This document shows, piece after piece, positions 1 through 42,269 of a stretch of DNA of 64,000 bases. Within the stretch, counting starts at the first letter, position 1. Each line of letters starts with the position of its first letter. The notes beneath the pieces were generated by a model, which had not been told where the DNA came from, did not search any database, and worked only from the letters and a program-made list of their open reading frames with translations. This stretch comes from an uncultured Desulfospira sp. (GTDB lineage Bacteria; Desulfobacterota; Desulfobacteria; Desulfobacterales; Desulfobacteraceae): NCBI GenBank assembly GCA_963663165.1, contig OY760175.1, positions 4,544,001-4,608,000 of the forward strand, given 5' to 3'. Position numbers and translations under genes: made by a program.

Positions 1-3000
1 GAGATATACCCTGATCCGGTAATGCCCCCGGCCGTGATGTAAACGGAACCGCCGGCTCCCCCGCCGGTATACCCGTATCCGCTATAGCCGTTGGCCCCGT
101 TGGCCAGGATATTTCCATTCAGGTTGAGGGTTCCGCCTACGGTCAGTTTGACAGCCCCGCCGCCGGCACCGCCGTCACGGTCGTAATAGGTGTTGTTACC
201 GCCGCCGCTGCCAAAAGCCGTAGGTTCGGCAATATCCCCATAGCTTTGACCGGCATCGGCATATTGCCCGCTGCCGCCATGTCCACCGTGTCCGGCACCA
301 CCGGTACCGGAAGAACCGGCATAATCATTTCCCTGGCCCGGGCCTTCTCCACCGGCATAACCCTTCTCGCTGACATCAATACTGGAACCCGATTCAATGG
401 TCATATCACCGGTGATGGTCAGGTTTAAAGTGTATTCCTGGTTTGTGCCGTTGGCTGGATGGCTGAGCGCTGTATTCCCGGTAATGGCCAGGGAGCCTAT
501 GGAAACAGATCCGGCAGGCTCCAGGGAAACCATACCGCCACCCTGGATACTGACGGTTTCATATGTGCCGGAAATGGGGGTTGCCCCGCTGGTGATCCCA
601 TTGTTGGCAATTTGTAACTCTGAACTATTATCTTGTAGTGATTTCAGGTAAATGGTGCCGGTACCGCCACTTTCATTGCCGGTTGTTCCATAAGCAGATA
701 TATCGACGGTGTCGTCAAGGCTGGTATAATAAACGGCAATCCTTCCGCCGGCCCCACCGCCGCCGCTGTAGTAGCCGGTGCCGCCATTGGCTGAGATATA
801 CCCTGATCCGGTAATGCCCCCGGCCGTGATGTAAACGGAACCGCCGGCTCCCCCGCCGGTATACCCGTATCCGCTATAGCCGTTGGCCCCGTTGGCCAGG
901 ATATTTCCATTCAGGTTGAGGGTTCCGCCTACGGTCAGTTTGACAGCCCCGCCGCCGGAACCGCCGTCATGGTCGTAATAGGTGTTGTTACCGCCGCCGC
1001 TGCCGATAGTCGTGGGTTCGGCAATGTCCCCATAGCTTTGACCGGCATCGGCATATTGCCCGCTGCCGCCATGTCCACCGTGTCCGGCACCACCGGTACC
1101 GGAAGAACCGGCATAATCATTTCCCTGGCCCGGGCCTTCTCCGCCGGCATATCCTTTTCCACTGACATCAATGCTGGAGCCTGATTCAATGGTAATATTG
1201 CCGGTGACAGTCAGGTCTAACGTGTATGCCTGGTCGGTGCTGTTAGGCCTATGGGTGACCGCCGTCTCTCCGGTGATGGTCAGCGATGCCATGGAAACGG
1301 ATCCGGTCTGTTCCAGAGCCATTTCCCCGCCGCCCCGGATGACGACCTCTCCATATTCACCGGAAATTGGGGTGGTACTTGAGGTGTTGCCGTTGTTGTC
1401 AAGGTACAGGCTGCCGTTGCTGCTGTCCGACGATTTCAGGTAAATGGTGCCGATTCCGCCGTATTCATATCCCGATCCGCCATATGCGGACATGGTGATA
1501 TTGGGATCAAGGGCGCCATAGTACACTGCGATCCGGCCGCCAGCCCCGCCGCCTGCAACATTGCTGTATCCATTCCCGCCATGAGCCGTAACCGAACCGG
1601 AGCCTGTAACTGTCCCGGCAGTCAGATAGACTGAGCCGCCGGCCCCGCCGCCGGCATAGTATTCCCCATTTCCCCCGTCAGCCAGAATGTCACCATTGAG
1701 GATGAATACGCCATTAACAGTCAGTTTTAAAGCCCCGCCGCCGGAACCCCCATTATAATTGTCTCTGTTGCCGCCGCCGCTTCCTATGGTGACCGGTTCT
1801 GCCAGGCTCCCGTAGCTTCCTCCGCCGTCGGCATAATTGGAAGAACCGCCATTGCCGCCATGGCCGGCCCCGCCCGGATAATTTGAGGCGTTTTCCCCCT
1901 GGCCTGTGCCCTCTCCTCCGGTATACCCCCTGGAACTGACATCGATGCTTGAACCCTCTTCAATCTCCATATTGCCGGTAACGGTGAGGTCCAGGGTGTA
2001 GGTCTGGTCCGTATCGTTGGCCGGGTGGGTTAATTTTGTATTTTCACTGATTAAAAGAGAGGTCATGGAAACCGGATCGGTCTGGAGCAGGGATAGGGTT
2101 CCGCCGCCGCGGATGGTCACGGTTTCGTAAGTGCCTGAAACCGGCGTCACCCCGATGGTGTATTTATTGGTTAAAAGAAGCAGTTCTGAACTATTGGTTT
2201 CAGAGGATTTCAGGTAAATGGTGCCGGTTCCGCCGTATTCATATCCGGATCCGCCGTATGCGGACATGTCGATAGTGGCATCAAGGGAGCCATAGTACAC
2301 CGCGATCCTTCCGCCGGCCCCGCCGCCTGCAACATTGCTGTATCCATTCCCGCCATGAGCCGTAATCGAACCGGAGCCTGTAACTGTCCCGGCAGCCAGA
2401 TAGACTGAGCCGCCGGCCCCGCCGCCGGCATAGTATTCCCCATTTCCCCCGTCAGCCAGAATGTCACCATTGAGGGTGAATACGCCATTAACGGTAAGTT
2501 TTAAAGCCCCGCCGCCGGAACCTCCGTTATAACTATCTCTGTTGCCGCCCCCGCTTCCTATGGTGACCGGTTCTGCCGGGCTCCCGTAACTTTCTCCGCG
2601 GCCGGTATACATGGCGCGGCCGCCATTACCGCCATGGCCGGCCCCGCCCGCGTAATTGGTTGAGTCTTCCCCCTGGCCTTCGCCCTCTCCTCCGGTATAT
2701 CCCCTGGAACTGACATCGATGCTTGAGCCCTCTTCAATCTGCATATTGCCGGTAACGGTGAGGTCCAGGGTGTAGGTCTGGTCCGTATCGTTGGCCGGGT
2801 GGGTTAATTTTGTATTTTCACTGATTAAAAGAGAGGTCATGGAAACCGGATCGGTCTGGAGCAGGGATAGGGTTCCGCCGCCGCGGATGGTCACGGTTTC
2901 GTAAGTGCCTGAAACCGGCGTCACCCCGATGGTGTATTTATTGGTTAAAAGAAGCAGTTCTGAACTATTGGTTTCAGAGGATTTCAGGTAAATGGTGCCG

Positions 3001-4330
3001 GTTCCGCCGTATTCATATCCGGATCCGCCGTATGCCGACATGTCGATAGTGGCATCAAGGGAGCTATAGTACACCGCGATCCTTCCGCCGGCCCCGCCGC
3101 CTGCAACATTGCTGTATCCATTCCCGCCATGAGCCGTAATCGAACCGAATCCCGTAATGGTTCCGGCAATAAGGTAGACGGAACCGCCGGAACCACCGCC
3201 GGCATAGTAGCTTCCATTTCCCCCGTCAGCAAGTATGTCACCGTTGAGGGTGAATACGCCATTAACGGTCAGTTTTAAAGCCCCGCCGCCGGAACCTCCG
3301 TTATAACTGTCTCTGCTGCCGCCCCCGCTTCCTATGGTGACCGGTTCTGCCGGGCTACCGTAGCTTTCTCCACGGCCGGTATACCTGGCGCGGCCGCCAT
3401 TGCCGCCATGGCCGGCCCCACCCGCGGAATTGGTTGAGTCTTCCCCCTGGCCTGTGCCCTCCCCTCCGGTATATCCCTTGGAACTGACATCGATACTTGA
3501 ACCGTCTTCAATCTGCATATTGCCGGTAACGGTGAGGTCCAGGACGTAGGTCTGGTCTGAGTTGTTGGCGGGATGGGTCACCTGTGTATTTTCACTGATT
3601 AAAAGAGAGACCATGGACACCGGATCGGTCTGCATTAAGGCGATGGTGCCGCCGCCGCGGATGGTCACGGTTTCATAGGTGCCTGAAACCGGTGTTACCC
3701 CGCTGGTGTTGCCGTTGTTTAAAATAAGCAGTTCTGAAAGATCACTTCCGGATGCCTTCAGGTAAATGGTGCCTGGTCCGCCGCATTCATATCCTGACCC
3801 GCCAAAAGCCGACATGCCGACAGTGGCATCAAGGGTGCCATAATAAACTGCGATCCTTCCGCCGGCCCCGCCGCCGCCCGCTCCGTTTCCGCCGTTTCCG
3901 CCGTCAGCCGAAACCGAACCGGATCCTGTAATGGTTTCGGCCGTAAGGTAGACGGAACCGCCGGCCCCGCCTCCCGAATATGTGCCTGCGTATGCGCCAT
4001 TTGCAAGAATATCGCCATTCAGGGTTAAGGTGCCGTTAACCGTAAGTTTCAATGCCCCGCCGCCGGAACCACCGTTATAATTGTCTCTGTTGCCGCCGCC
4101 GCTTCCCAAGGTTACCGGCTCAGTCACGTTGCCATACCCCTGTCCACCGGCGGCGGAGATGGAGCTCCCGCCGTTTCCGCCGTGCCCGGCACCACCCGCA
4201 TAATTGCTTGCGTCTTCACCCTTGCCGGGACCGTTTCCGGCCGTATACCCTTTGCCGCTCAAATTAATGCGTGAGCCGGCTTCAATAAGGGCATCGCCTG
4301 TAATTGTAATATCAAGGGGATTGCGCAAGG
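1..4330 (-). repeat. Tandem intragenic repeats, 774-792 bp period (258-264 aa), at least 6 units
   Basis: GAGATATACCCTGATCCGGTAATG recurs at 1 and 793. TCAGGTAAATGGTGCC recurs at 644, 1436, 2210, 2984 and 3758. Confidence 0.9.
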
Positions 4331-4652
4331 CGTCATCCGGCCCCGAATGGGTAAGGACCGCATTGTTGATCAGGTTTATCTGTGTAAAACTGTGAGTGCC
4401 GTCCACTGTAAGGGTGCAGCCATCAACCGTTATGGCCTGGTTGTCGTATGATGAATCATTGGCAGCGATAGACGCGGCTGAGGAAAAGGTCGTCTCTTCT
4501 GCATCATTGACCGGTACGAAAATCATGGAGCAGGTCATCAGCAGCGTAAACCATAAGCAAAAGATGCTTAAACGGCCACGGGTTTGATTTAAATTATGTT
4601 TCCATTCAAATATAGAAGATCGATTTTTTCCGGTCGAAGCTGAAAACTGCAT
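1..4652 (-). CDS. Giant exported Gly-rich repeat protein (3' end beyond the window; ~1550 aa visible), N-terminal paralog of 9594..25337
   Basis: Manual translation from ATG 4652 (upstream AGAGGG) gives MQFSASTGKNRSSIFEWKHNLNQTRGRLSIFCLWFTLLMTCSMIFVPVNDAEETTF...TVDGCTLTVDGTHSFT. The same frame reads GAGGSVYITAGGITGSGYI at 59..3. It is absent from the ORF track, consistent with no stop inside the window. Confidence 0.9.
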   Translation of the reverse strand, partial: MQFSASTGKNRSSIFEWKHNLNQTRGRLSIFCLWFTLLMTCSMIFVPVNDAEETTFSSAASIAANDSSYDNQAITVDGCTLTVDGTHSFTQINLINNAVLTHSGPDDALRNPLDITITGDALIEAGSRINLSGKGYTAGNGPGKGEDASNYAGGAGHGGNGGSSISAAGGQGYGNVTEPVTLGSGGGNRDNYNGGSGGGALKLTVNGTLTLNGDILANGAYAGTYSGGGAGGSVYLTAETITGSGSVSADGGNGGNGAGGGGAGGRIAVYYGTLDATVGMSAFGGSGYECGGPGTIYLKASGSDLSELLILNNGNTSGVTPVSGTYETVTIRGGGTIALMQTDPVSMVSLLISENTQVTHPANNSDQTYVLDLTVTGNMQIEDGSSIDVSSKGYTGGEGTGQGEDSTNSAGGAGHGGNGGRARYTGRGESYGSPAEPVTIGSGGGSRDSYNGGSGGGALKLTVNGVFTLNGDILADGGNGSYYAGGGSGGSVYLIAGTITGFGSITAHGGNGYSNVAGGGAGGRIAVYYSSLDATIDMSAYGGSGYEYGGTGTIYLKSSETNSSELLLLTNKYTIGVTPVSGTYETVTIRGGGTLSLLQTDPVSMTSLLISENTKLTHPANDTDQTYTLDLTVTGNMQIEEGSSIDVSSRGYTGGEGEGQGEDSTNYAGGAGHGGNGGRAMYTGRGESYGSPAEPVTIGSGGGNRDSYNGGSGGGALKLTVNGVFTLNGDILADGGNGEYYAGGGAGGSVYLAAGTVTGSGSITAHGGNGYSNVAGGGAGGRIAVYYGSLDATIDMSAYGGSGYEYGGTGTIYLKSSETNSSELLLLTNKYTIGVTPVSGTYETVTIRGGGTLSLLQTDPVSMTSLLISENTKLTHPANDTDQTYTLDLTVTGNMEIEEGSSIDVSSRGYTGGEGTGQGENASNYPGGAGHGGNGGSSNYADGGGSYGSLAEPVTIGSGGGNRDNYNGGSGGGALKLTVNGVFILNGDILADGGNGEYYAGGGAGGSVYLTAGTVTGSGSVTAHGGNGYSNVAGGGAGGRIAVYYGALDPNITMSAYGGSGYEYGGIGTIYLKSSDSSNGSLYLDNNGNTSSTTPISGEYGEVVIRGGGEMALEQTGSVSMASLTITGETAVTHRPNSTDQAYTLDLTVTGNITIESGSSIDVSGKGYAGGEGPGQGNDYAGSSGTGGAGHGGHGGSGQYADAGQSYGDIAEPTTIGSGGGNNTYYDHDGGSGGGAVKLTVGGTLNLNGNILANGANGYSGYGYTGGGAGGSVYITAGGITGSGYISANGGTGYYSGGGGAGGRIAVYYTSLDDTVDISAYGTTGNESGGTGTIYLKSLQDNSSELQIANNGITSGATPISGTYETVSIQGGGMVSLEPAGSVSIGSLAITGNTALSHPANGTNQEYTLNLTITGDMTIESGSSIDVSEKGYAGGEGPGQGNDYAGSSGTGGAGHGGHGGSGQYADAGQSYGDIAEPTAFGSGGGNNTYYDRDGGAGGGAVKLTVGGTLNLNGNILANGANGYSGYGYTGGGAGGSVYITAGGITGSGYI

Positions 4653-4905
4653 CCTGTGCCCTCTTTATCTCAATATCCATGTTCTGCATTCATAGTCGCC
4701 AAATTCACAAATCCGCAGGTATGTCTATTTTCAACCCCATTTTCGGCATCGCATATGGCCCAGAACTTGATCCTGCCGACGGATACCCGGATTGATGCAC
4801 CGGTTTTGAATGGTGCTGCCCCGGTCCGGAACGGCATACAGATGTCGTTGACAGTGAAAATATATCTTTTAAGCGAATCCGCTCTGTCGTCAGTGGATTA
4901 GTATT

Positions 4906-4921
4906 TGCAAAAACTATGCCT
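4906..4921 (-). promoter_or_regulatory. Sigma-54 (-24/-12) promoter for the 1..4652 gene
   Basis: Minus strand AGGCATAGTTTTTGCA = GG-N10-GC, with GGCA and TTGCA matching the consensus. Confidence 0.7.
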
Positions 4922-4999
4922 GTGATCATGATGTTTGAAAGATCTCATTAATTCAATACGATACCTTTTTGAGCTATTATTTTGAGGATGGCGTTTTGG

Positions 5000-5053
5000 G
5001 AAAAAAATGTGAACTATTATGTAAAAGATTTCACAATAAGAAAAAGTTTTCCT
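5000..5053. promoter_or_regulatory. Putative enhancer (bEBP binding) block
   Basis: TGTAAAAGATTTCACA (TGT-N10-ACA) at 5020-5035, in a block alignable with 26478-26532. Confidence 0.6.
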
Positions 5054-5295
5054 AAAAATAGGTTTCGATAAAGGCGTGATTCGAACAGAAAATTGGATGG
5101 GGATGTTCTGTGTTCTTGATCCCAGTGCCCATGACACCCGGATGCCTTCCCCCCTATCAAAGAATATTCAAAATATATCGTAACTATTCAGCTAATGCTG
5201 AAAACTAAGCAAAACTGCCTGAAAACGACCCAAATCTTATGATCTGTAATTCGGCACCAGTTATGACCCGGGTTTTTGTCCGTGACAATTAACCG

Positions 5296-8200
5296 TTATT
5301 CCGCTGTGCAGCCTAGAAGAACCACAAAATACGGAAAGTCCAGGTGGTCGATCTTGTAGTCGCCGTTAAAATCAGCCTTATGATAGAGCTCAAAATTCGG
5401 ATCTCCTGAGTCATATTCAATTCCGATAAGCCGGCTGAAAACAAGGATATCCTGGCCGTCCACATCATTGTCGCCGTCAAGGTCCGCATCTGAACAGGCC
5501 CCGGTGAAACGGTAGCCGAAGATGTTGGTGAACAGTTCAAGGTCTTGTTCATTAATGACGCCGTCGCTGTTAAAGTCGGCATCGGCATCAAACCCGTCAT
5601 CGGCTGATGTCAGGTGAAGCAGGGACATGAGCCGGAAAAGATCGCTTCCGTCGATGTCCAGATCCCCGTCCAGGTCACCGTACCGGGGCGGATAGGGCGG
5701 TCTGCTGGAGGCATTCAGCGGATCGGTTTTGGCGTAAAATTCCTCGCCGTCAGAGTAACTGTCTTTATCCGTATCGCTGTCAAAGGGATCCGTGCCATAG
5801 GCAATTTCCAGGCCGTTGCTCAGATCGTCGTTGTCGGCATCGGCGTCTTCGGCAAATGTGGTGAACTGCCAGACCGGGCCTTGGGTTACCTGGCTATAAC
5901 TGTCCGTGGCCAGGACCTGCCACCAGTAGGTGGTGCTGAACCCCTCTAATGCCAGCAGACATCCGGTATCCGGCAGATTTTCACAATTTTCATCAATGGT
6001 AAAGCTGCCGTCCTCTGTTTTGTACCGGACGGTATAGGTCACCGTATCCCCATCATCCGGGTCCCCGCCGGTCCAGGACAGGGCCAGGTCAACGGACAGA
6101 CCGGTTTGCCCATCTGAAGGTGTGGGGGCTGAAGGATCTGACGGCTTATAGTTGACGGTGATGGCGCCGGCCGCGTAATCGGAAATTGTGCTGGTGTTAT
6201 CGGAAATCCGGGCATACAGGTAATAGGTGCCGCCGGCAATGCCGGAGAGGTTCCAGTCATAGGTATCGCCGGATTCATCAGAATCTTCGGAAATACCGGA
6301 GATGATCAGGGTGCCGTCCTCTCCTGAATCGTCGGTGTCATAGTACAGGGAGATTTGGGCATCGGAATCCGGGTCTGTATCTTCCCATGAAATGGTGCAT
6401 ACAGTATCAGGCCCTTCAACCGTGATGACCTTGTCCGTATCCGGTGCAGTCAAAATGACGGTCGGCGGATCATCGGTGGTATCCTCTTTAACAAAAAATG
6501 CCTGGGCGTCGCTCCAGTCGCCTTCAATGCCGTGGGCGTCGACCAGTTTTGCCCGCCAGTAATACCAGGCGGCGTTTTCAAGTTCCCGGGAAACCGTTAA
6601 GGACAGGGTGTCTGACGATTCATCAAACGCCAGATCAGTCAGATGTTCATCCGTATACACTTCAACCATCATTTCCACGGCATCATTGTCCGGGTCTTCA
6701 ACCGGATGAACCGACAATACAGGTGTTAACTGATCGGCCCAGGACAGGTTCCCCGGGTTTTTAAGCACAGGGATTCCCGGGGCATCGTTATAGGTGTTGA
6801 CAAAGAATTGGCCCGCCACCCACTGGCTTGCCGATTCGCTGTCACGGGATCTGGCCCGCCAATAGTAAACCGTGTTGTCGGCCAGGTCCTGCACCTGCCA
6901 TTGCACCGTATCTTCTGAAACCGTGATCTCACCGGACCCGGTCCCTACAGGGTCGCTTGCGCTGAAATTTTTTGAAGTGTCAATCTGGAAGTCATAATTT
7001 ACTTCTTCCCCGTCCGGGTCGCTGACAGGGCTGACAGACAGCATAACCGATATGGTTTTTACTTCACTTCCGGTTGCCGGTGAATCAATTTCAGGTGCCG
7101 GCGGGGTATGGTTGGCGGTGTTTACGGTAAAGGAAGAGAGTTCACTGGTCACCGGGTTCCCTTCAATATCTTCAACGGTTACCTGCCAGTGGTAAGAACT
7201 GCCGTTTTCAAGATCTGCGCTAACCTGGAAGGAGACCATGCCGGATGCTTCATCCACACTGCCCTGGCCTGAATCCACTATCTCATTCTGGTCCGAATAA
7301 ACCGAAAAGGTATAGGTCAGGGAATCGCCCTCCGGATCAGTGCTGAACCCGGACACAAGGACCGGAGTGAGCGAATCCACACTCCCGGATTCCTCCGGGG
7401 TCAGCAGTTCAACCGCTCCCGGCGGATCATTGGCTTCACTGACCAGAAATGATCCATGGGTCCAGAAGGAATAGGCCGTGCCGTCAAAGGCTCTTACCCG
7501 CCAATAATAGGTCTGGTCTTCCACAAGGGTTTCAGTGACGGTCCATAAAGCGATATTGCCCGATTCCGTGACACCGCTTTGACTTTCCACAGGTGTGGTG
7601 TATCCGGCGTCTGAAAAGAGTTCAAATTCATAGGTTAAAATATCGCCATCGGCATCTGTGCTGCAAAGAACCGACAGGTCCGGATTAAGTGAAGTTACAA
7701 TGGTACCGGGTTCGGGTGCATTGATAACGGGAACGCTGGGGGCGTTTTCGGTTCCGGTGGGATTGGTGCCGTTTAAAAATTCATCCAGATCTGAAATGCC
7801 GTCACCGTCAAAGTCGCCGGTGCCGTCCCGGTCCAGGGTGCCGAAATGTTCCTCCTCCCACTCATCGTCCATGCCGTCACAGTCTATATCATTGACAGGG
7901 CAGATGGTCAGGGTGGCGGTCTGGGAGTCGGTCAGGGCTCCGTCCGAGGCCTTGAACTTGATGGCATAGGATCCGGCCTGGCCAATGGCCGGGATCCAGT
8001 CAAACCGGCCTATGCCCTCGCCGATAGTCGTAAATGTCGCCCCTTTGGGCAAGGCTGAGGTGGAAAGGGCCGGGATGGTACCGTTGGGATCAGTGGCCTG
8101 GACAATAAAAGAGAGCAGCTGCTCTTCAGGTTTTTGTTTGTTTTCGATGTACTGAAGCACCGGTGCCTGGTCCATCTCTTCGGGATCTTCAAACACGATG

Positions 8201-9570: not shown

Positions 9571-9593
9571 TGTCTTTTCCTTAGAATTTGACG

Positions 9594-15500: not shown

Positions 15501-18500
15501 GGTAATGCTTGAAATCTCTCCATAGTAAGCCGTGTCAATCAGGGTGATATCCCGTTTTGTCCGCACCCCGCTCATCTCGACTTCATTGTCTTCTCCCAGG
15601 GCATAGTAAATGCGGTTGATTCTCAGGACCAGGGTCATCTCATCGGGGGCATCTGAAGGCACGGTAATGCTCATGGGCCGGGACTCAAATGTTTCCCCCG
15701 GCCCGATTCGGGCCACGGTACGGCCCGAGGCCAGCGTCACCACATTGGGGCCCAAATTCTGGGTATAGGTTCCCGTGGAAAGGGTGTTGCCTTCTCCATC
15801 GTTGAGATACAGGGTGATGTCAGCGGAGGCTTTGCTGCCGGGTTCCGCCGTGACCATTTCAATTTGTTCATCCCCGGTGTTTTCCAGGGTAAAGACGATT
15901 TCTCCTGAGGTGCTGCGGACAAACTCATCATTGGTAAAGGAAAGCTTGAGCATGCCGGTGCCCACCGAAATGTCACTGGTTGTGGCGATCCGGACGGTTT
16001 CCCCGTCATTGGGCGTGATCTGGATCACGGTTTCAATGGATGAGGTATCCGGCAGATCACTGTATCCGCCAATGACCACGGGCACGGTCAGGGATTCGCC
16101 GCCCCCCAGGTCAAAGGAGGATGAAACGTGTTCATGGCTTTCAACGGTGACCTTTAACACGGCATCTTCCACAGCCGTGGTGCCGCTGTTGGTCACCGTG
16201 TATTCCAGGCGGTTCATGAGCCCGCGTTTCAGGCCGGTTCCTTCGGGAAGGACGGCGCTTAAGGCGGGCAGGACAATGCTTCGGCCAAGGCTTTCCTTAT
16301 TTTCTGAATTCACGGCAATGACGGTATACCGCCGGTCATTGCCGTCAAATCCCGTGTCTTCATAGGGGGAGCCGGCCAGCAGGGCTGTGTTGAGCCGGGT
16401 GGTGCCGCCTTCGGGTCCCAGTTCAATATGGTACCCGCTGATACTGGTGCTGGAATGGGTCCAGGAAATGACGGGGCTGTCGTCATCCGTTTGGACCACG
16501 CTCAGCTCATCTACGGGCAGCAGTGCAAAATCAAGGTAGGCAGGGTCGCTGGGAGCCGATTCATTGCCCACCTGATCCACGGCCGTGACCACATAGTAAT
16601 GCCGGTCTTCGGATGGCTTTGTATCAATGGCGGTGGCCACCTCAATACCGGTGCGTACGGGTGTCAGGCCTTCTATGGAAGTGATGCCGGCGTTATCGGT
16701 CCGGTACAGGGAATAGGTCATGTCTTCGGTATCGGCCGGTGCGGTCCAGGTGGCCTGGATCCCCTGGGCGGTCAACGTCAGGGCAAGACCCGTTGGGACC
16801 CCGGGGGCTGTGCTGTCGGATACCACTTCAACGGATGCGCTCCGGCCGCTTTCGGCGGTTTCCTGGTTTTCTGTGCGCAGGCTGGCAATGGCATAAGTAT
16901 AGGTGCCGTCTGCCCCGGGATTACAGGTGTATTCAGTAACGGTATCCAGGTTGGCCAACGCCTGCCATTCACCCGGTACCTGCTGGTAAAGCACATATCC
17001 CACCGCCTGATCCACGGCATCCCAGGTCAGCCGGATTTCTCCTGCCGGCAGGGAAACCCCGGCAAGGCCGGTGGGGGCTGCCAGAGGCGGCAGACTGCCC
17101 TGATAGATCTGGAAGGCATTGTCTGCGGTGATCTCATCGGAAGTATTGTCCAGATCGTCCACGGCTGAATAGATGAATTCCAGGGTTTCGGCGGTTTCAA
17201 AACCGGCATCCGCGGGCAGGGTGAACACGGCCTGCCAGGTTTCGGCATGGCCGTCTGCTGTTTCGATACGAGTGATATCAGTGGTATCGATTTCCACAGG
17301 CTCCCGGCCTTCTTTGGAAAGCTGATAAGACAATGCCGGGGTCTCCCCGTCTTTGACCGCTTCAGAAAGGCCCAGCACAACCGTTATCGCTACGGGATCG
17401 GTTTCATCGTTCTGTACAGGGGCCGCAGGGGTAATCTTTATGTCGATAAGGGCGGGCCCCTCGGTGTCAATTTCCACGGTATCGCCCGAAGCAATGGTAT
17501 CGCCCCGGTTTCCGGCCTCGTCCCTGGCCGAGAATACGGCATAAGCCGTGCCTGTGGGGGTGTTCTCATCAATGACAAACACGCCGGTGTAAGTCAGTTC
17601 TGATTCCTGATCCAGGTCTATGGTCATGGGAACGGCCCCCACGGGGTTGATGCTCAGGAAGGGGGTGGTCACCAGGGGTTCGCTTACCGTAAGGGTCACA
17701 TAAACAATCCCGGTTCCCATACGGCCGGTAGTGGTCTCATAATGCTCTTCCGGTGAGTATTCAATGGCCGCCTGGGGGGCCACCCGGTCGGAAATACCGG
17801 ACACCGTGGCGGACAGGGCGCTCTCATTTTCCGCATAATCCACGGCTGTAATGCCGTAATAATATTCCCCGTCTTCATCGGGAAGGTCTTTATAGGTTAA
17901 AGCTGTGATCAGGGATGAGTTAAGCTTTGTTCCCTGGCCGACAGCTGTGAATGTTGTGGCGGACCGGTACAGGTTATAGCCCTGGACCGTGGTATCAAGG
18001 GGCTTGCTCCAGGTTAAGGTAATGACGCCTGAGGCACCGGAATTTGCCTTAAGGTGGGAGGGGCTGTCCGGGATGCTGGTATCTAATTTGACGGTAACGG
18101 CGGTACTCTTAACGCTTTCTCCGGTCCGGTTTTCGGCCGTGGCCTCAAGGGTGTTCTCGTCTTCTGCAAGGGTTACCAAAAGACTGAATTTGCCCTTGGC
18201 ATCGGCTGTGGTTTCATTGCCCGCGGCCGACCCGTTTATGTAAACCTTGATACCGGCAAGCTTCTGGGCCGTTCCCGACACGGTAATATCGGCCTCGTTA
18301 ACCATCTCTCCATTGGAAGGGCTGGTGATTACCGGTGCCGGCGGAAGGGCTAAGGCAACGGTAACGGTATAAGAGGCCGTGGTGGTGTTGCCAAGGGTGT
18401 CGTAGGCGGTAATCTGAACGGTATATGGCCCGTCGTCAACGGACAGAATATCCCACTGGCAGGCGTAATCCGATCCGCTGGTATCGGAATAAGTGGTCCC

Positions 18501-21500
18501 GGCAATTAAAAATTCAACCCGGGAGACACCGGTTTCATCGGTTGCATTGCAGCTGATGGTGGCCGTGCTGTTTACGGTTGTGACGTCGGCAATGGCAGTG
18601 CCATTCAGGGTGATGTTGGAAATGACGGGCCCGAGCGTATCTGCCCTGGGAGTGCCTGAAACCGTATTGATGCTTTCCTGATCTTCCCCGCCGGACAGGT
18701 TCACCGTTGTCACGGCAAAATGATAGGTTGTGCCGTTGGTCAGCCCTGCAACACTGATACTGGTTCCGGTAGTGGTCAAAACCGGAGACATGCCCTCAAC
18801 ACTGGTAAAAGGATCTGTGCTTTTATAAATACGGTAATTTTTAACGTATTCAGTCGGCAGAACCGCATTCCAGGAAAGGGTTACCCTGCCACTGAGGGCT
18901 TCCACTGATGGGGTACCCGGATTCTTCATAACCGTATATCCGGTAATGGAAACCCCGGAACTTTCATTGCCGTTGGTATCTACAGCCGTGATTTTAAACA
19001 GGTAAGCCTTTGACGATGTAAGACCGGTCGCTTCATACTGGTTCGACTGGTCAAGCTGGGTCGAATCATAAGAAATCTCTACCCCGTCGCCACCATCAAA
19101 ATAGATCATGTAATGGTGTAGATCCCCCATGGTATTTACAGAGTGATTCCAGGTAAAGGTCAAGCTGTCGGCACCGCTTTGAACCGCAAGGTTGGTCACA
19201 TTTTCAGGGGCAGTTTGAATGGTAAAGGTCCGGGTCGCCGGGGTAGGGTCTTCATTCCCCGAATAATCCATGGCCTTGACCCTGAAAACATGTTCCCCGT
19301 CTTCAAGTCCGGTATACTGGATGTTGGTGTCCGACGAATATTCGGACCATTCCCCGTCATCGAGCTGGACGGCATAGGTCAGTTGCCATTGGACATTATC
19401 CACAGCCGTCCAGGTAAAGCCGGCCGTGCTGTCGTAAACAATCCCGCCATCCGAAGGCCCGGATGAAACGGTGGTTTCCGGAGGCTCGGTATCCAGCAAT
19501 GTGGTAAATGAGGTTTCAACAGAGTAATCGCTCCAGCTGCCCCGGCTGTCCTTGTACCGCACCTGCCAGTAATAGGTGGTGCCCAATTCAAGGGTCCCGT
19601 AGGACAGGGTGATGCTGGTCAGGTCCGTGGTGGTCTCTTCATAAAACACAGGGTCATCATAGGTGCCGTCAGATGACCGGACCTGCCATTGGGTGGTGGT
19701 ATGGGTATCGTCCGTATCACTGTCGTTAAAATCCGAAGCCGTCAAGGTCACATAAGGGTTGACCGAGTCATCGCCATTTGCCGGGGCCAGGTTTTCAGGT
19801 TGCTCGGGAAGGTTGTTTTCAAAGGTAACGGTGATGGTATCGGCATCACTTTCCAGTGAAGATTCATCCAGGCCGGTAACACTGAAGAGATTCTCTCCTA
19901 TGGAAAGCTCGGTCTTATAGGTCCAGGTCGTATACCCCGCCGTATAAGTTACCCCTTCTTCAGAACCATTGACCAAAATAGAGGCCGTATCTTCCGAGCA
20001 GGTCCCTTCCAGAATAAAAGTGGATAGCTGAACCGTCATGTCACCGCCCCCATTGGTGGCGATGACAGGAGCCCCTTCCGGCGTGGTGTCCCGGGTAATG
20101 GTGATTAAAGTCCGGCCGCTTTCATCGTTGCTGCCGTCTATGGCCTGGACATAAAAGTAGTTATACCCTTCTGTTAGAGAAACCAGGCATAGCCAGGTTG
20201 TCTCTCCGGGCGTATAGGTAACATCTGTTGACGTGTCGTTCACCAGAACCTGATGGGTTCCAGTGGGGCAGGTCCCTTCTATTACAAAGCTGGTTTCAGC
20301 GGTTGTGAGATTGACGCCGTTATTGGTTGTAATGATCGGGTTGGCCACGGATGGAACATATATTGTACCCACGTCACCACTGTTATAGCCGGTACCGCCT
20401 GCAACGGTGACGTTTGCTGTAAGGAAAGTTTCCGAAGGGGGTGTCAAAAAATAGTTGAACGCAATTCTTCCGCCGCCACCACCACCGCCATCATTAATGG
20501 TATAAGCATTTCCGCCTTTTGCTGAGATTATTCCTGATCCGGTTATCTCACCTGCTGTTATATAAACCGATCCACCAGAGCCGCCGCCCGAGGCATGAGT
20601 ATAATTATTATAACCGCCACTGCCGTCGGCATGAATATCTCCATCCAGAATCAGAACACCACCTACGGTTAATTTTAGTGCCCCGCCGCCACTGCCGCCT
20701 TTAAAATTGTTGTTATAGCTGTCGCCACCACCGCTGCCCAGAGCTGTGGGTTCGGTTTCACTTCCATAGAATGAACCACCGGCGGCATATTGTGAATTTC
20801 CGCCACTGCCGCCATACCCGGCGCCGCCGGCATCATTATAGTTGTCTTCCCCCTGCCCGGGGCCCTCTGATCCGGCATACCCCCGTTTGCTGACGTCAAT
20901 GCTCGAATTCAATTCAATATGCATGCTGCCGGTTACCATCAGATCCAGGGCATACTCCCGGTCACGGCTGTTGGCCGGGTGGGTAACCGTTGTATTGTCG
21001 CTGATGGCCAGGCCGGCCATGGAAAACGATCCGGTCTGTTCCAGGACAATCTGTCCACCGCCATGGAGACTGACATCACCATAGTTACCGTAAATCGGTG
21101 TTATACCGCCCTGGCTGGTGTTGTTTAAAATTTGCAGAGTCCCGACGTCATCAGCTGAGGATTTCAAATAGATGGTACCGGTACCGCCAACCTGATACCC
21201 TGATCCCCCATAGGCAGAAAGTTTAATCCTTGAATCAAGAGTATTATAATAAACGGCGACTCTTCCCCCGCCCCCGCCCCCGCCGTCATTTGAGGTGTAA
21301 GCATTCCCGCCGTCCGCTGTGATACGGCCTGATCCCGATATCGTTTTGGCAATGATATAAATTGAACCGCCGGAACCGCCGCCCGAGGCATGAGTGTAGT
21401 TGCTAAAACCGGCACCCCCGTCAGCATAGATGCCGCCTTCCAGGGTCAGAGTACCGTCTATGGTCAGCTTAATGGCGCCACCGCCACTGCCGCCTTTGTA

Positions 21501-24500
21501 ACTGGTATCATAGCTATTGCCGCCGCCACTGCCCAGAACCATGGGGGCAGTGATGCTTCCATAACTTGCACCCCCATTGGTGAAAGAAGAACTGCCGCCG
21601 GTACCGCCGTGACCGGCACCTCCTGAATCATTGTAGTTGTCCGTTCCCCGGCCGGGTCCTTGTCCGCCGGGATATCCTTTTTCGCTGATGTCAATGCTGG
21701 AGCCTGATTCAATAAACATATCCCCGGCTATGGCCAGATCCAGGGTATATACCTGCGCACTACTGTTGGCCCGGTGGGTAACGGTTGTGTTTTCACTGAT
21801 TTCAAACGTGTCCATGGAAACGGAACCGGTTTGCTCCAGCACCACCTCGCCGCCTCCACGGACGATCACTTTGCCGTAGTCGCCGGAAACCGGGGTGATA
21901 CTCCCGCTGCTCGCGTTGTTGTCAACAACCAGATCTCCATTGGTGCTTTCTGATGATTTTAGATAAATGGTGCCTATACCGCCATATTCATACCCTGATC
22001 CGCCATATGCAGACATGGTAACGGTGGAATCAAGGGTGTTATAATATACTGCAATTCTTCCGCCACCACCGCCACCGCCTTCAATGCTGTATCCGTTGCC
22101 GCCGTCGGCCGTAATCACACCGGTTCCGGTTATGCTCCCCGCTGTTATATAAACCGATCCGCCTGATCCGCCGCCTGAGGCATAAGTGTAATCATTAGCG
22201 CCATTCCCACCGTCGGCATGAATACCGCCGTATAAGGATAGAGTACTGCCTATGGTCAGTTTTACGGCCCCGCCGCCGGCCCCGCCCTTATAGCTATAAC
22301 CGGTTCCGCAACTGTCGCCGCCGCCGCTGCCGAGCAGCGTCGGCTCAGTGATGCTCCCGTAACTTTCCCCTCCGGCCACACGCTCATCTTTAGAAATGCC
22401 GCCAATACCACCGTGGCCAGCGCCTCCTGCGTCCCTAGTGCTTTCAGTGCCCTGGCCCGGTCCTTGTGAGCCGGCATATCCTCTTGCCGTTACATTGATA
22501 TAGGAACCGGAGTCGACGGTCATGTTGCCGGTTATGGTTAAATCCAGGATAAAGGGTGATTCCGCTTCGGTGCTGTTGGACGGGTGGGTAACCGTTGTGT
22601 TTTCGCTGATGGTCAGGTTTGCCATGGAAAAAGCCCCGGTCTGTCTTAAAATGACCTCGCCGCCGCCGCGGATAATCACGTCATCATAGCTGCCTTCTAT
22701 CGGCGTTGTTACACCGGAGTAGCCGTTGTTGACAATATGCAGGTCGCCATTGACACTTTCCGGGGATTTCAGGTAGATGGTTCCGGTACCGCCGCGCCCG
22801 GCGCTATACCCTAATCCGCCGTAAGCTGACATGGTAATATCGGCTTCAGAATCAAAGGTGTTATAGTAAACCGCAATTCTTCCGCCGCTGCCGCCACCGC
22901 CGTCATCGGAGTATCCATCACCGCCGTCGGCTGTAATCACACCGGTTCCGGTTATGCTCCCCGCTGTTATATAAACCGATCCGCCTGATCCGCCGCCTGA
23001 GGCATAAGTATAGTCCGTATGTCCATTTCCACCGTCGGCATGAATGGCGCCGATTAAGTTAAGCGTACCGGTTATATCCAGCTTTACGACTCCGCCGCCG
23101 GCCCCGCCTTTATACCTGTAACCGGTGCCGCAGCTGTCACCGCCGCCGCTGCCGGGCAGTGTCGGCTCAGTGATGCTCCCGTAACTTTCCCCTCCGGCCA
23201 CACGCTCATCTTTAGAAATGCCGCCAATGCCGCCATGGCCTGCACCGCCTGCGTCCCTAGTGCTTTCTGAACCCTGGCCCGGTCCCTGCGAGCCGGCATA
23301 TCCTCTTGCCGTTACATTGATATAGGAACCGGAGTCGACGGTCATATTGCCGGTTACGGTTAAATCCAGGGTAAAGGGTGATTCCGCTTCGGCGCTGTTG
23401 GACGGGTGGGTAACCGTTGTGTTTTCGCTGATGGTCAGGTTGGCCATGGAAAAAGCCCCGGTCTGTCTTAAAATGACCTCGCCGCCGCCGCAGATAATCA
23501 CGTCATCATAGCTGCCTTCTATCGGCGTTGTTACACCGGAGTAGCTGTTGTTGACAATATGCAGGTGCCCATTGGCACTTTCCGGGGATTTCAGGTAGAT
23601 GGTTCCGGTACCGCCGCGCCCGGCGCTATGCCCTAATCCGCCGTAAGCTGACATGGTAATATCGGCTTCAGAATCAAAGGTGTTATAGTAAACCGCAATT
23701 CTTCCGCCGCTGCCGCCACCGCCGTCATCGGAGTATCCATCACCGCCGTCGGCTGTAATCACACCGGCTCCGGTTATGCTCCCCGCTGTTATATAAACCG
23801 ATCCGCCCGATCCGCCGCCTGAGGCATAAGTATAGTTAGTGGTGCCATTTCCGCCGTCGGCATGAATGGCGCCGTTTAAGTTAAGCGTACCGGTTATATC
23901 CAGCTTTACGACTCCGCCGCCGGCCCCGCCTTTATACCTGTAACCGGTGCCGCAGCTGTCACCGCCGCCGCTGCCGGGCCGCGTCGGCTCAGTGATGCTC
24001 CCGTAACTTTCCCCTCCGGCCGCACTCTCATCTCTAGAAATGCCGCCAATGCCGCCGTGGCCAGCGCCTCCTGCATCCCTAGTGCTTTCAGTGCCCTGGC
24101 CCGGTCCTTGCGAGCCGGCATATCCTCTTGCCGTTACATTGATATAGGAACCGGAGTCGACGGTCATATTGCCGGTTACGGTTAAATCCAGGGTAAAGGG
24201 TGATTCCGCTTCGGTGCTGTTGGACGGGTGGGTAACCGTTGTGTTTTCGCTGATGGTCAGGTTGGCCATGGAAAAAGCCCCGGTCTGTCTTAAAATGACC
24301 TCGCCGCCGCCGCAGATAATCACGTCATCATAGCTGCCTTCTATCGGCGTTGTTACACCGGAGTAGCTGTTGTTGACAATATGCAGGTGCCCACTGGCAC
24401 TTTCCGGGGATTTCAGGTAGATGGTTCCGGTACCGCCGCGCCCGGCGCTATACCCTAATCCGCCGTAGGCTGACATGGTAATATCGGCTTCAGGATCAAA

Positions 24501-25337
24501 GGTGTTATAGTAAACCGCAATTCTTCCGCCGCTGCCGCCACCGCCGTCATCGGAGTATCCATCACCGCCGTCGGCTGTAATCACACCGGTTCCGGTTATG
24601 CTCCCCGCTGTTATATAAACCGATCCGCCTGATCCGCCGCCTGAGGCATAAGTGTAATCATTAGCGCCATTCCCGCCGTCGGCATGAATACCGCCGTATA
24701 AGGATAGAGTACTGCCTATGGTCAGTTTTACGGCCCCGCCGCCGGCCCCGCCCTTATACCTGTAACCGGTGCCGCAGCTGTCACCGCCGCCGCTGCCGGG
24801 CCGCGTCGGCTCAGTGATGCTCCCGTAACTTTCCCCTCCGGCCACACTCCCATCTTTAGAAATGCCGCCAATGCCGCCGTGGCCAGCGCCTCCTGCATCC
24901 CTAGTGCTTTCAGTGCCCTGGCCCGGCCCTTCCGATCCGGCATATCCTTTTGTGTTTAAATTGATGCTTGAATCCGAATCAATGGACATATCGCCGGTTA
25001 TGGTCAGATCCAATAAATTTTCAGAGGCTGCGCTGTGGGTCAGCACGCCACCGTTTATCAGGGTCACATTTGTAAAGGTATGGGGACCGTCCACCGTGAG
25101 GGTACAGTTATTCACGATGATGGTTTGTTCGTCATATGTTGAAACACCGAAGCCTATGGATGCGTTTTGGGTAAATTCCTGGGCGGATACATTATTTACC
25201 GACAGGCAGACCAGGGCAAAAATTATCAGTGCCAAAGGCAAGAGAAAAATGCCGGTCCGGTGTCTAAATTGACTTAAACGGTTTTCCCGTTCATGTGCGG
25301 ATGCTTCTTTTTTCAAGCTTGGCGTGAAAATTTTCAT
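9594..25337 (-). CDS. Giant 5247-aa exported protein: Gly-rich repeats + Ig/FN3 stalk + Rhs/YD repeats + Rhs core + Cys-rich C-terminal domain
   Basis: Signal peptide; 6 Gly-rich units (~25040-20360); FN3/Ig-like domains (~20350-13950); YD repeats (~13550-10300); Rhs core [25 protein letters not shown]...[10 protein letters not shown]. Confidence 0.95.
   Translation of the reverse strand: [5247 protein letters not shown]
20360..25040 (-). repeat. Six Gly-rich repeat units; four near-identical at DNA level with 822-bp period
   Basis: Equivalent positions at 22262, 23084, 23906 and 24728. Protein motif GGAGHGG...GSGGG...GGAGGG...[10 protein letters not shown]...[13 protein letters not shown]. 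Confidence 0.95.
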
Positions 25338-25395
25338 CTTTATGTCCTCTTCTCCATCAATGGCGCTATTTTTTTCGGCCCTGTAATTTATTGGA

Positions 25396-26298
25396 TCAGT
25401 CGTTCATTGTAACTTTTAAGCCCTTGCCCTCAAACCGGAAGCGGTGGTGGCCTTCCATGACATCTGTTTTGGTCTTTCCAAAAATCCGCATGGCAACATA
25501 CCAGGCGGCATTCTGTTTAAAGATCCGTTTATGGGCATCGGCGATCTGCCAGGTGTGGTTCTCATAAATTTCAGCCCAGTTGTGGTAGCTGGCCGGATGC
25601 AGCACTTCATTTTGTTTGCAGATATATCCCCCCACGCACCGGGCCGGGATGGCGTTGGCCCGGCACAGGGCAGCAAAGAGGTACATGTATTCGGTGCAGT
25701 CGCCTTTTTTGTGCTCAAGGGCGTAGAGCGCGCCCTTGTCTTTGCCCGAAAAGCCGGCATAGGTCATGTGGTTGACCATCCACTGGAAGGTGTTTTGGGC
25801 GGTTTTTTCAGGGGTGGCGGCTTTCAGCGGCTGGGCCGTACGGATGATTTGCGGGTCATCGCACTGGATGAATGGTTCAGGCTCTAAAAAGGGGTTTAAA
25901 TCCGTCGCCTTTTCCGGGTTGGGCGAATCCGCCATCATGAGATTTGCCGTGATGGAAAGGATCCGGCTGCCGTAAGGCGGCAGTTTTTCGATCACGAAAT
26001 AAAGAATCTGATTGCCCAGATCGTCCACAATCACCTCATGGGGATGGGCGGTTTCAATGTTGACGCATTGCTGGGTTGGCGTCAGCTTTACCGGTCCATA
26101 GGTCCAGAACCGGGCATTTTCAATAAGATCGCCGGTGGTATTTTTCAGGGTGAACGAATAATGGATCTGTCGTGAAATTGAATTCGGGCTGTCTGTCTTT
26201 TCAAGGTCCCGGCTGAATGCCGGTAACGTTGAAACAACCATCAGCAGAACACAGATTGCCGCATGAATGCAGATTTCTTTTGAAGTCATGCCTAACAT
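25396..26298 (-). CDS. Exported transglutaminase-like (Cys-His-Asp) protein
   Basis: GDCTEY, YHNWAEIY and WQIADAH motifs of the transglutaminase-like core; N-terminal hydrophobic signal (AAICVLLMVVSTLPAFS). Confidence 0.88.
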   Translation of the reverse strand: MLGMTSKEICIHAAICVLLMVVSTLPAFSRDLEKTDSPNSISRQIHYSFTLKNTTGDLIENARFWTYGPVKLTPTQQCVNIETAHPHEVIVDDLGNQILYFVIEKLPPYGSRILSITANLMMADSPNPEKATDLNPFLEPEPFIQCDDPQIIRTAQPLKAATPEKTAQNTFQWMVNHMTYAGFSGKDKGALYALEHKKGDCTEYMYLFAALCRANAIPARCVGGYICKQNEVLHPASYHNWAEIYENHTWQIADAHKRIFKQNAAWYVAMRIFGKTKTDVMEGHHRFRFEGKGLKVTMND

Positions 26299-26394
26299 TT
26301 ATTCCATCCTTAGTTGGTAAACATGGGAGACGGGTGCTGCCGCCAACGTGAAATCAATACCAATTTTATTATATAATAATATAATATCAAATGA

Positions 26395-26410
26395 AGCAAT
26401 AAACGTGCCG
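26395..26410 (-). promoter_or_regulatory. Sigma-54 promoter for the transglutaminase/giant-Rhs operon
   Basis: Minus strand CGGCACGTTTATTGCT, a near-perfect match to TGGCACG-N4-TTGCW. Confidence 0.8.
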
Positions 26411-26477
26411 AAAAAAATGGTATTCTGGAAAGCCGGATCTGTGGGGTTTACGAAATTTTTGGGAATTTTTTTCTATA

Positions 26478-26532
26478 GAAAAAATGTAATCATTTTATGT
26501 AAAAAATTTCTCAGTGTGTAAAAAATTTCTCA
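26478..26532. promoter_or_regulatory. Putative enhancer block, two exact copies of TGTAAAAAATTTCTCA
   Basis: Copies at 26498-26513 and 26517-26532, ~90-120 bp upstream of the sigma-54 site. Confidence 0.7.
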
Positions 26533-41226: not shown

Positions 41227-41886
41227 TCAATGGTGGAGGGAGCTTTTCCCTTTAATTTTTCTGTTATACCCTGCCAAACCCAGCAGACCCGCCCCGAACA
41301 GAAGCAGTGTTGCCGGTTCGGGGACTGGGGATGCGGCAGGGGCAGTGAAACTCCAGGTCTTCACATCTACAAAACGGTCTCCCCCGTATTCAAAAAAACT
41401 GCGCAATTCAGCGTTTTCAAGGGGATCGGCTTTTTGCATATCAGCACTTGTCAGCCCGGTAAAGTGTATGGCATAGCCGGAATATTTTCGGTCATCTTCT
41501 GTGGTTCCAGGATTCCAATCCTGACACATGGTAATCCCGAAATAATCATCGCCATCCCTTTGTTGAACAGTAAACGTATCGTAATAAGCATCATCGCCGT
41601 CGCTGGTTTTGTACCAGTTTTCTTCGGTAATGGCTTCATCGCCAACCCGTGTTAAGGTGGCGTAAAACCAATCGGCTATCGGTGTATCAGTTTTTGTCAC
41701 GTAAATACTGCCATCTTCGTACTTCAGGACCCCGTCTCTATCCGGATCAATTAGAAAACCAATGTCAATTAATCGCCCGTCTTGAGTTGTAATATAAAGG
41801 TCATATTCTATGGGGGTCGCATTAACCATTGTCCCAACCCCCAATAACAAAGCAACAGCAAAACCAATAAAACCTGTTTTCAACAT
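41227..41886 (-). CDS. PEP-CTERM protein
   Basis: Signal peptide; canonical VPEPATLLLFGAGLLGLAGYNRK. Confidence 0.9.
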   Translation of the reverse strand: MLKTGFIGFAVALLLGVGTMVNATPIEYDLYITTQDGRLIDIGFLIDPDRDGVLKYEDGSIYVTKTDTPIADWFYATLTRVGDEAITEENWYKTSDGDDAYYDTFTVQQRDGDDYFGITMCQDWNPGTTEDDRKYSGYAIHFTGLTSADMQKADPLENAELRSFFEYGGDRFVDVKTWSFTAPAASPVPEPATLLLFGAGLLGLAGYNRKIKGKSSLHH

Positions 41887-42143: not shown

Positions 42144-42269
42144 ATACGTAACCGATCCGGAAAAAATCGTTTTTTTACGTTAAAAATTCTGATATCAGCA
42201 GGGGGTTACAATGGTTGTCATGCCGGTAGTTGAAACGGGAACGGATTGGGATTGAACCACAGGAGTGTG

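Follow-up and report, generated by a model that had tools for sequence, protein, structure and literature searches.

Among the described Rhs proteins, the closest class to the locus analysed here is the Sec/type II secretion system (T2SS) group of RHS polymorphic toxins (PMC3482391). The locus lies in a 64,000-nucleotide stretch of DNA, hereafter the window, which covers positions 4,544,001-4,608,000 of the single-contig, 6.74 Mb genome of an uncultured Desulfospira sp. (contig OY760175.1). It encodes a transglutaminase-fold enzyme (TGase), two giant Rhs proteins (giants 1 and 2) and a partner protein for each giant, the first of which begins with a conserved head. We find that this gene set likely represents Sec-exported polymorphic Rhs toxins with a conserved, uncharacterised accessory set, for which we propose a mechanism. 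The favoured reading, to which we give a probability of roughly 0.55, is that of polymorphic Rhs toxins displayed on the cell surface and held or matured there by the partner and the TGase.

The passages of PMC3482391 on the Sec/T2SS class describe fused, inactive transglutaminase domains, next to RHS arrays and bacterial Ig domains, that are proposed to anchor the toxins. Like this class, the locus has a signal peptide in place of PAAR, VgrG or TpsA; its RHS array leads into a C-terminal toxin domain that varies, orphan cassettes being found here in a paralogous locus; and a transglutaminase-fold module accompanies RHS toxins and Ig domains. It differs in that the TGase is a separate protein of 300 residues with an intact Cys-His-Asp triad rather than a fused inactive domain, in that a 440-residue head protein and a rhodanese-like protein, which do not figure in those passages, belong to the set, and in that the giants reach about 5,000 residues, include probable β-helix repeats and carry a cargo without an adjacent immunity gene.

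Teneurin-like proteins (TLPs) also resemble the giants. As described in PMC13018210, they are Sec-exported surface proteins that occur in Thermodesulfobacteriota and Myxococcota. They have adhesion domains and a YD/RHS shell preceded by a transthyretin-like domain, their paired DPxG motifs are autoproteolytic and their cargo measures ~15 kDa. The giants resemble them in these respects, with Sec export and surface location predicted. In the solved BiTLP structure, a cysteine links the cargo to the plug; the paper also describes a membrane-permeabilising cargo that is disulfide-linked to the plug, and reports that the cargo of a Desulfosudis TLP belongs to an 'OMP-like' class (PMC13018210). TLPs have an immunity gene directly downstream in that account, where this locus has the partner gene, and a term search of the same paper returned no mention of transglutaminase or dockerin. 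Unlike TLPs, giant 1 shows no NHL propeller (no Pfam match at E <=1 in residues 3891-5100), and its cage matches solved T6SS-type (type VI secretion system) Rhs toxin cages at E 1.2e-62 to 3.8e-41 (8h8a, 7q97, Tse15 8uy4, Tse5 8cp6, Tre23 7pq5) against 1e-23 for the solved TLPs 9ifo and 9pt5. Measured against the three-domain definition of the family, the locus does not encode a TLP.

T6SS Rhs effectors have a homologous cage and Rhs-associated core and an encapsulated, cleaved C-terminal cargo. Unlike them, the locus has no PAAR or VgrG and sets a signal-peptide-like N-terminus and ~4,000 residues of β-helix and Ig stalk before the cage; it is not a T6SS effector. WapA of Bacillus subtilis is a Sec-exported, wall-associated Rhs toxin that is held on the surface of its producer and acts in contact-dependent inhibition. 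Its host is monoderm, and WapA has wall-binding repeats and a downstream immunity gene (WapI); we know of no TGase, head protein or rhodanese accessory genes for it. Like WapA, the locus would hold a Sec-exported Rhs toxin on the producer's surface. Tethering of the cohesin-dockerin (cellulosome) type is a possible parallel, as partner 1 ends in two dockerin-type modules; there is no carbohydrate-active context, the cohesin candidate is unlinked and the partners of other lineages use other C-terminal anchors. Autotransporters and two-partner secretion gave no Pfam match; the cargo stands behind the Rhs cleavage site, and its model of seven long strands weakly resembles small barrels and porins (Z 3.3-5.5).

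A full-text literature search, with most subscription journals outside its coverage, returned no paper describing the set of TGase, head, rhodanese and Rhs. One candidate, PMC13274458, was rejected as a description of the gene set: its sole mentions of transglutaminase, rhodanese and RHS are entries in a table listing mutations that have no bearing on it.

Layout of the locus

On the minus strand the genes run in the order TGase, giant 1, partner 1, giant 2, partner 2 over ~42 kb. Positions 1-26,298 of the window are filled by four co-oriented open reading frames (ORFs), whereas partner 2 and the rest of giant 2 lie beyond the window edge and were found by reading on in the genome. The features within the window are as follows.

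25396..26298, minus strand: TGase, 300 aa, predicted secreted, with an N-terminal β-rich part and then Transglut_core (PF01841)
9594..25337, minus strand: giant 1, 5,247 aa (ORF, Pfam and NCBIfam domains)
25182..25337, minus strand: signal-peptide-like N-terminus of giant 1, residues 1-52, ending VSA/QE (by inspection)
20238..25160, minus strand: Gly-rich repeat region of giant 1, residues ~60-1700, six units of ~265-275 aa (direct DNA repeats)
13368..20237, minus strand: stalk of giant 1, residues 1701-3990, with fn3, Big_7, Glucodextran_B, Y_Y_Y and CarboxypepD_reg (transthyretin-like) domains and, last, a Cys-rich linker (Pfam)
10020..13367, minus strand: Rhs cage and Rhs-associated core of giant 1, residues 3991-5106 (Pfam, NCBIfam, solved cages)
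9597..10019, minus strand: C-terminal cargo of giant 1, 141 aa after DPFG, Cys-rich, predicted all-β, ending in Trp (alignment, AlphaFold2 model)
5296..9615, minus strand: partner 1, 1,439 aa from the first ATG, likely starting at Met16 (position 9570; its own database entry has 1,424 aa)
8176..9498, minus strand: conserved N-terminal head of partner 1, residues 40-480, predicted as about four packed β-sandwich domains (AlphaFold2 model, alignment)
5299..8175, minus strand: variable stalk of partner 1 (Big_9, Ig-like arrays), then a TSP3 repeat and two dockerin-type Ca-binding modules (Pfam)
3..4652, minus strand: giant 2, first 1,550 of 5,454 residues; the gene runs on for 11,712 nt past the window start, with partner 2 (1,412 aa) behind it

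An initial annotation of the window had described four co-oriented genes with Sec-type signal peptides. The ORFs are confirmed, the signal peptides are read by inspection (all four N-termini are basic, then hydrophobic, then AxA-like), and the fourth gene is incomplete in the window. Pfam and NCBIfam matches and, for the Gly repeats, a DNA repeat search bear out the domains it had assigned, namely a transglutaminase, a Gly-repeat/Rhs giant and a dockerin-like, Ca-binding partner. Its second giant paralogue is real as well: giant 2 is a complete Rhs paralogue of giant 1 and has a partner gene to itself, which makes for a larger locus than had been claimed. The second partner gene and a rhodanese-like fourth component were not part of that account. 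Its failure to see VgrG/PAAR, TpsB, autotransporter or RTX features agrees with our searches, in which no PAAR, VgrG, TpsB, TpsA, autotransporter or RTX family is among the Pfam and NCBIfam matches of the four proteins, and no PAAR or VgrG occurs among the other genes of the window either.

Giant 1 sits between the TGase and partner 1, and the gap of ~23 nt between giant 1 and the likely start of partner 1 points to one transcript. The seven sequencing runs listed, from two studies, include none of RNA. The same order of TGase, giant and partner is found in genome G043, and the window is a rearranged form of the gene set, with the giant placed between TGase and partner. The nearest public relative of the locus is on an uncultured Desulfospira chromosome, where giant and partner are 82-91% identical at the protein level. 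That relative (L001:14326-16050) has one giant-partner module against two here, with a flanking 552-aa gene common to both, so that module 2 was either gained in this genome or lost there.

Conserved linkage across genomes

We sampled 23 public loci, among them loci of Desulfobacterota, Myxococcota, Nitrospirae and Elusimicrobia. In 13, the gene directly upstream of the head gene encodes a TGase homologue, and in 11, Rhs or giant-stalk homology adjoins the head gene. A further sample consists of 401 genomes of the same order, in which TGase profile scores are two-humped: full-length matches at E 8e-48 or better, which define a specific subfamily, and core-only matches near 1e-20. Of these genomes, 64 have the head and 49 the specific TGase; 48 have both, and a single one has the TGase without the head. 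For 40 of the 78 head matches a same-strand TGase lies <=2 kb upstream, at a spacing of 92-769 nt. Co-occurrence in gene neighbourhoods, which the initial annotation had put forward as its first check, is borne out.

We also examined 20 kb to either side of ten TGase-head pairs, selected because they lie on long contigs. A giant homologue lies downstream of the partner in six, and in two more the contig ends inside the following large ORF; none of the ten upstream stretches contains a giant homologue. Across the loci with enough flank, giant genes (β-helix/Ig/Rhs) stand beside the TGase-partner pair in most. The ORF that separates the partner from the giant, or the Rhs gene from the partner, is rhodanese-like (PF00581) in all 13 cases tested (for example L043:6752-7585, L012:6398-7207 and L049:7992-8753). 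It encodes a secreted tandem form of 213-350 aa, most copies of which are without the active-site Cys but have a C-terminal CxxC. In addition, two metagenomic proteins, P0245 (895 aa) and P0256 (5,713 aa), contain an Rhs end and the head within a single reading frame. Taken together, the neighbour counts, the paralogous loci described below and the Rhs-head fusions link the gene set well beyond chance.

P0256 has β-helix repeats upstream and giant-stalk domains downstream of its Rhs-head fusion. Type II secretion genes (GspF-like and pseudopilin-like) are found 4-11 kb from the TGase-partner pair at two loci (L008:1-5740 and L055:1-4286), and could, as a lead only, mark the outer-membrane route of these Sec-exported proteins.

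The same counts can be read as two systems sharing one neighbourhood, with TGase, partner and rhodanese-like protein forming a surface organelle of their own (an adhesin or a cross-linked, pilus-like fibre) while giants gather there through recombination in a surface-gene island. TGase and head are indeed the tightest pair, both in spacing and in the near-complete overlap of the genomes that hold them. There is no giant within 15 kb in L055 and none on the short contigs L009, L011 and L017; the position of the giant relative to the pair varies between upstream, downstream and in between; and this genome has a lone partner gene at a separate site (locus B). We nevertheless consider this arrangement quite unlikely, since a giant adjoins the pair in six of the ten sampled pairs and in 11 of the 23 loci, across phyla, the trio is repeated at three loci of the genome, two proteins fuse the Rhs end to the head in frame, and in the window the giant stands between TGase and partner, next to the likely start of the latter.

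The partner head and the TGase

Partner 1 begins with a signal-peptide-like N-terminus and ends in dockerin stretches at window positions 5335-5484 and 5524-5682 (Dockerin_1, 24 bits; cut-off 22.9). No Pfam or NCBIfam model covers the 440-residue head between its N-terminus and the stalk, in which the motif VCAxVxIxIxQELTLERQAF is near-invariant among 22 homologues. An AlphaFold2 model from the 22-sequence alignment (predicted local distance difference test (pLDDT) 88.6, predicted template modelling score 0.83) has about four packed β-sandwich domains. Foldseek searches of this model against the Protein Data Bank gave only low-TM Ig, pilin, ASH and integrin matches, and VIA returned generic β-sandwiches of PapD/ASH-like and macroglobulin type (Z 7-8.4) for residues 25-150.

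The head nonetheless belongs to a large family. Of 7,997 candidates from a word-indexed search, 1,361 proteins match at E <=1e-3, and the best 120 of these are 57-100% identical over the head, with very different sets of C-terminal domains. Against 1.84 billion representatives, a head profile matched 3,382 at E <=1e-3 and 2,209 at E <=1e-30, and in nearly all of the best 150 of these matches the head begins at residues 6-70, right after the signal peptide. Head identity is 52-66% in loci of Desulfobacterota, Myxococcota, Nitrospirae and Gammaproteobacteria and 35-42% in those of Elusimicrobia and Verrucomicrobiota. The partner C-termini of two Myxococcota loci and of L057 consist of a hydrophobic stretch followed by basic residues.

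In two proteins, P0125 and P0246, the first 300 residues of the head recur internally, as two or three copies. Cys10 of the partner was considered as a lipoprotein cysteine and rejected: every aligned sequence has V, L, I or F in the position before it, which does not fit the lipobox consensus. Genome-wide, there are 23 dockerin matches in ~17 ORFs and a single cohesin match above the Pfam cut-off (30.5 bits; 5,635,143-5,635,427), which is unlinked to the locus. For a sulfate reducer that is not cellulolytic, these numbers suggest that dockerins serve display at the surface more generally.

The TGase matches Transglut_core (PF01841) at E 8.8e-21 and 74.7 bits (cut-off 23), and its catalytic triad of Cys201, His239 and Asp254 is invariant in 14 of 14 homologues. 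With the triad intact, the enzyme is predicted to be active, as either a protease or a cross-linker. Its nearest solved structure is 3isr, a putative cysteine protease of the same fold (E 2.3e-9), and most bacterial Transglut_core proteins are annotated as cysteine proteases. Co-folding of the partner head with the TGase scored 0.12 against a mark of 0.32, which speaks neither for nor against binding.

These properties would also suit export or maturation factors, with the head as a periplasmic or surface chaperone or usher-like guide, the TGase as a protease that frees the giant or its cargo, and the rhodanese-like CxxC protein managing disulfides. The resemblance of the head domains to PapD/ASH-like and macroglobulin-type β-sandwiches points this way at a generic level only. 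The protease annotations of the TGase fold suit the same role, as do the rhodanese-like copies, which mostly lack the active-site Cys yet keep the C-terminal CxxC, the Cys-rich cargo and pre-cage linker, and, in L008 and L055, the proximity of type II secretion genes to the pair. A chaperone, however, would need neither 900-3,000 residues of variable Ig stalk nor a C-terminus of surface-anchor type, and the head lies at the opposite end from the anchor, as in tip-presenting adhesins, so that we hold this role to be improbable.

The giants and their cargo

The Gly-rich region of giant 1 consists of six direct repeats spaced 792-822 nt, as found by a DNA repeat search; Tandem Repeats Finder, with a longest period of 500, gave nothing. 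The repeats are likely a β-helix. A sequence search returned no solved relative of them, and the named clusters nearest to them in a protein atlas carry a G8 domain (score 0.92), a lead only. Further along, RHS_repeat (PF05593) matches the whole protein at E 8.8e-74 and, in a search of the cage region, 16 stretches over ~1,000 residues at E 1.9e-80, TIGR01643 matches at E 1.2e-59, and the Rhs-associated core is recognized by TIGR03696 (E 9.7e-19) and PF03527. The YD repeats begin ~100 residues past a plug-like VGSYVNLMNG segment. Both DPxG motifs are kept (ADPLGL and IDPFG), with a 40-residue insert containing one Cys between them, and from these motifs autoproteolytic cleavage is predicted.

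The 141 residues behind the second motif form a cargo family with 13 invariant Cys across six sequences and an aromatic terminal residue. The family is present in giants 1 and 2 and in the giant at 3.55 Mb of this genome (41-43% identity), in the Desulfospira orthologue (86%) and in genomes G042 and G043; it was found in five of the 401 genomes of the order. Beyond the protein itself and its Desulfospira orthologue, a word-indexed homology search of the cargo found nothing, and the protein atlas gave scores <=0.85 and no family. The AlphaFold2 model has moderate confidence (pLDDT 63.4) and seven long antiparallel strands.

Between the two DPxG motifs, at window positions 10020-10150 (giant 1 residues ~5063-5106), there is a 20-residue insert with one Cys. 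The insert goes with the Cys-rich cargo: equivalents are found in L024, L025, L031 and L032, and paralogues with other cargoes are without it. Its Cys may form a disulfide to the cargo.

Paralogous loci and exchange of cargo

The theme of TGase, giant and partner is repeated in the genome at 1.20-1.27 Mb, 3.55-3.57 Mb and 3.66-3.68 Mb, and the genome also has one lone giant in addition to the lone partner gene of locus B. Seven paralogous Rhs ends are conserved as far as the second DPxG motif; right behind it, their sequences become unrelated. The cargo of one is a prokaryotic phospholipase A2 (PF09056, 37.5 bits; cut-off 29.4), and the tail of another has a glycine-zipper-like hydrophobic segment (a weak match, E 0.058).

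The 65 kb locus at 1,204,104-1,269,208 (locus A; L028, L029) holds a partner, a TGase and a 4,787-aa giant, followed by three truncated Rhs C-terminal (Rhs-CT) cassettes with unrelated tails, one of them the phospholipase A2, among transposase- and integrase-like genes. Three of its four Rhs ends are directly followed by small ORFs with hydrophobic N-termini. Locus A looks like the orphan-cassette and immunity layout for the same giant family, the immunity role being assigned by position only.

The evidence favours a polymorphic toxin over a scaffold. The initial annotation had preferred to see the Rhs cage as part of an adhesin-like scaffold rather than a toxin, and this is the claim that fares worst: the DPxG motifs are kept, cargoes vary, one paralogue carries a phospholipase A2 and the cage is nearer to toxin cages.

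The alternative would be a non-toxic surface filament or matrix for adhesion or aggregation, possibly cross-linked by the TGase, with the cage in a structural or recognition role as in teneurins and the Cys-rich domain as part of the scaffold; it has a slim chance, for although the locus is without an immunity gene, the same cargo family is kept in three giants of the genome, Desulfospira, G042 and G043, always directly before a partner, its 13 invariant Cys are as in a stable extracellular fold, the β-helix and Ig arrays, dockerin modules and TGase with intact triad all suit a matrix, and bacterial teneurin-like proteins are linked to species with social behaviour in PMC13018210, that same source describes metazoan teneurins as being without the DPxG autoproteolysis motifs kept here, the paralogues carry unrelated cargoes, phospholipase A2 included, with immunity-like ORFs after them, no NHL domain was found in a cage that sits closer to toxins than to TLPs, and the sporadic occurrence of the cargo family, in just 5 of 401 genomes, fits a swappable payload better than a core structural part.

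Proposed mechanism

For the surface-displayed toxin system, we propose the following course. All of the proteins would cross the inner membrane by Sec. The partner would then be fixed to the cell surface by its C-terminus, through dockerin-type modules here and through a hydrophobic, basic anchor in other lineages; anchored in this way, it would point its conserved four-domain head outward. The head may capture the giant, and the TGase would either cross-link head and giant through a Gln-Lys isopeptide bond or cut one of them to mature it. The β-helix and Ig stalk of the giant would reach a neighbouring cell, where the Rhs cage would release its autoproteolytically cleaved cargo. In giant 1 this cargo would be a 141-residue, disulfide-rich, all-β domain acting on the membrane.

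Several points weigh against the toxin system. Crossing of the outer membrane has type II secretion as a lead only, and capture by the head and either action of the TGase are proposals. A hidden Markov model of the head gave no significant match to either giant, so head and giant are not built of the same module. The specific TGase is absent from 16 of the 64 genomes with a head, most of which have a divergent head (E ~1e-100 to 1e-120) or short contigs. This genome has one rhodanese-like copy, at 2,442,632-2,443,564 and unlinked to the locus, and the protein is therefore not needed in cis. As the initial annotation had observed, the locus has no immunity gene: no plausible small ORF follows either of its Rhs genes and the immunity position is occupied by the partner gene, which directly follows all six full examples of the cargo family and leaves an immunity gene no space. 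Pfam gave no match to the cargo at E <=1, the cargo model gave nothing at E <=0.001 in Foldseek, and its best VIA matches, Rhodococcus VapB (Z 5.5) and then porins and pore formers (Z 3.3-4.5), are all below the tool's noise guide. With neither a Pfam family nor a clear structural match, the toxicity of this cargo is a proposal.

A bolder form of the same idea, which we regard as unlikely as a whole, would make the locus a contact-dependent weapon of diderm bacteria that works without type V, VI or VII secretion. The head would capture an Rhs harpoon of ~5,000 residues, the TGase would weld it on by an isopeptide bond, much as sortases do in Gram-positive pili, the rhodanese-like CxxC protein would set the disulfides, and the cargoes would be interchangeable, from phospholipase A2 to an immunity-free, disulfide-locked, pore-forming barrel.

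Promoter candidates and genomic setting

The initial annotation had placed the genes in two sigma-54 units. Consensus elements are present before the TGase and giant 2, in keeping with that division, which is weakly indicated, as these are consensus matches only.

26395..26410, minus strand: candidate sigma-54 -24/-12 element cGGCACgtttaTTGCt, 98-112 nt upstream of the TGase start, matching the consensus at 10 of 11 specified positions
4906..4921, minus strand: candidate sigma-54 -24/-12 element aGGCATagtttTTGCa, 254-269 nt upstream of giant 2, matching the consensus at 9 of 11 specified positions

Across the whole window, the sigma-54 pattern with <=1 mismatch gives 10 matches against 4.7 expected, a number reached in 2 of 100 shuffles. 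Similar sigma-54-type matches are found at three paralogous loci, again by consensus matching.

The rest of the window, from 28 to 64 kb, holds metabolic and regulatory genes unrelated to the locus. Among them, 42246-47429 on the plus strand encodes a fusion protein (1,727 aa) that joins a Ser/Thr protein kinase to an AAA_16 ATPase, a GAF domain and a HisKA_3/HATPase histidine kinase, with a LuxR-type response regulator and a second GAF histidine kinase downstream. The protein encoded at 41227-41886 on the minus strand (219 aa) carries a sorting signal of the PEP-CTERM type (PF07589, E 1e-7), from which it follows that the genome also uses exosortase-type surface anchoring.

Significance

The initial annotation's broader suggestion, of a conserved multi-gene extracellular system that is uncharacterised, is supported by this analysis. 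The locus bears on the means by which diderm bacteria display and deliver Sec-exported Rhs toxins when no type VI system is involved. It points to a specific and widely conserved accessory set, made up of a TGase with an intact triad, the head partner and a rhodanese-like CxxC protein, and with these genes defined, the question of display and delivery becomes testable. It also offers a class of Rhs cargo without an adjacent immunity gene. The head itself is a large unannotated family (3,382 cluster representatives) that deserves a model in the domain databases, and it is in this family, together with the accessory set, that the main value of the locus lies.

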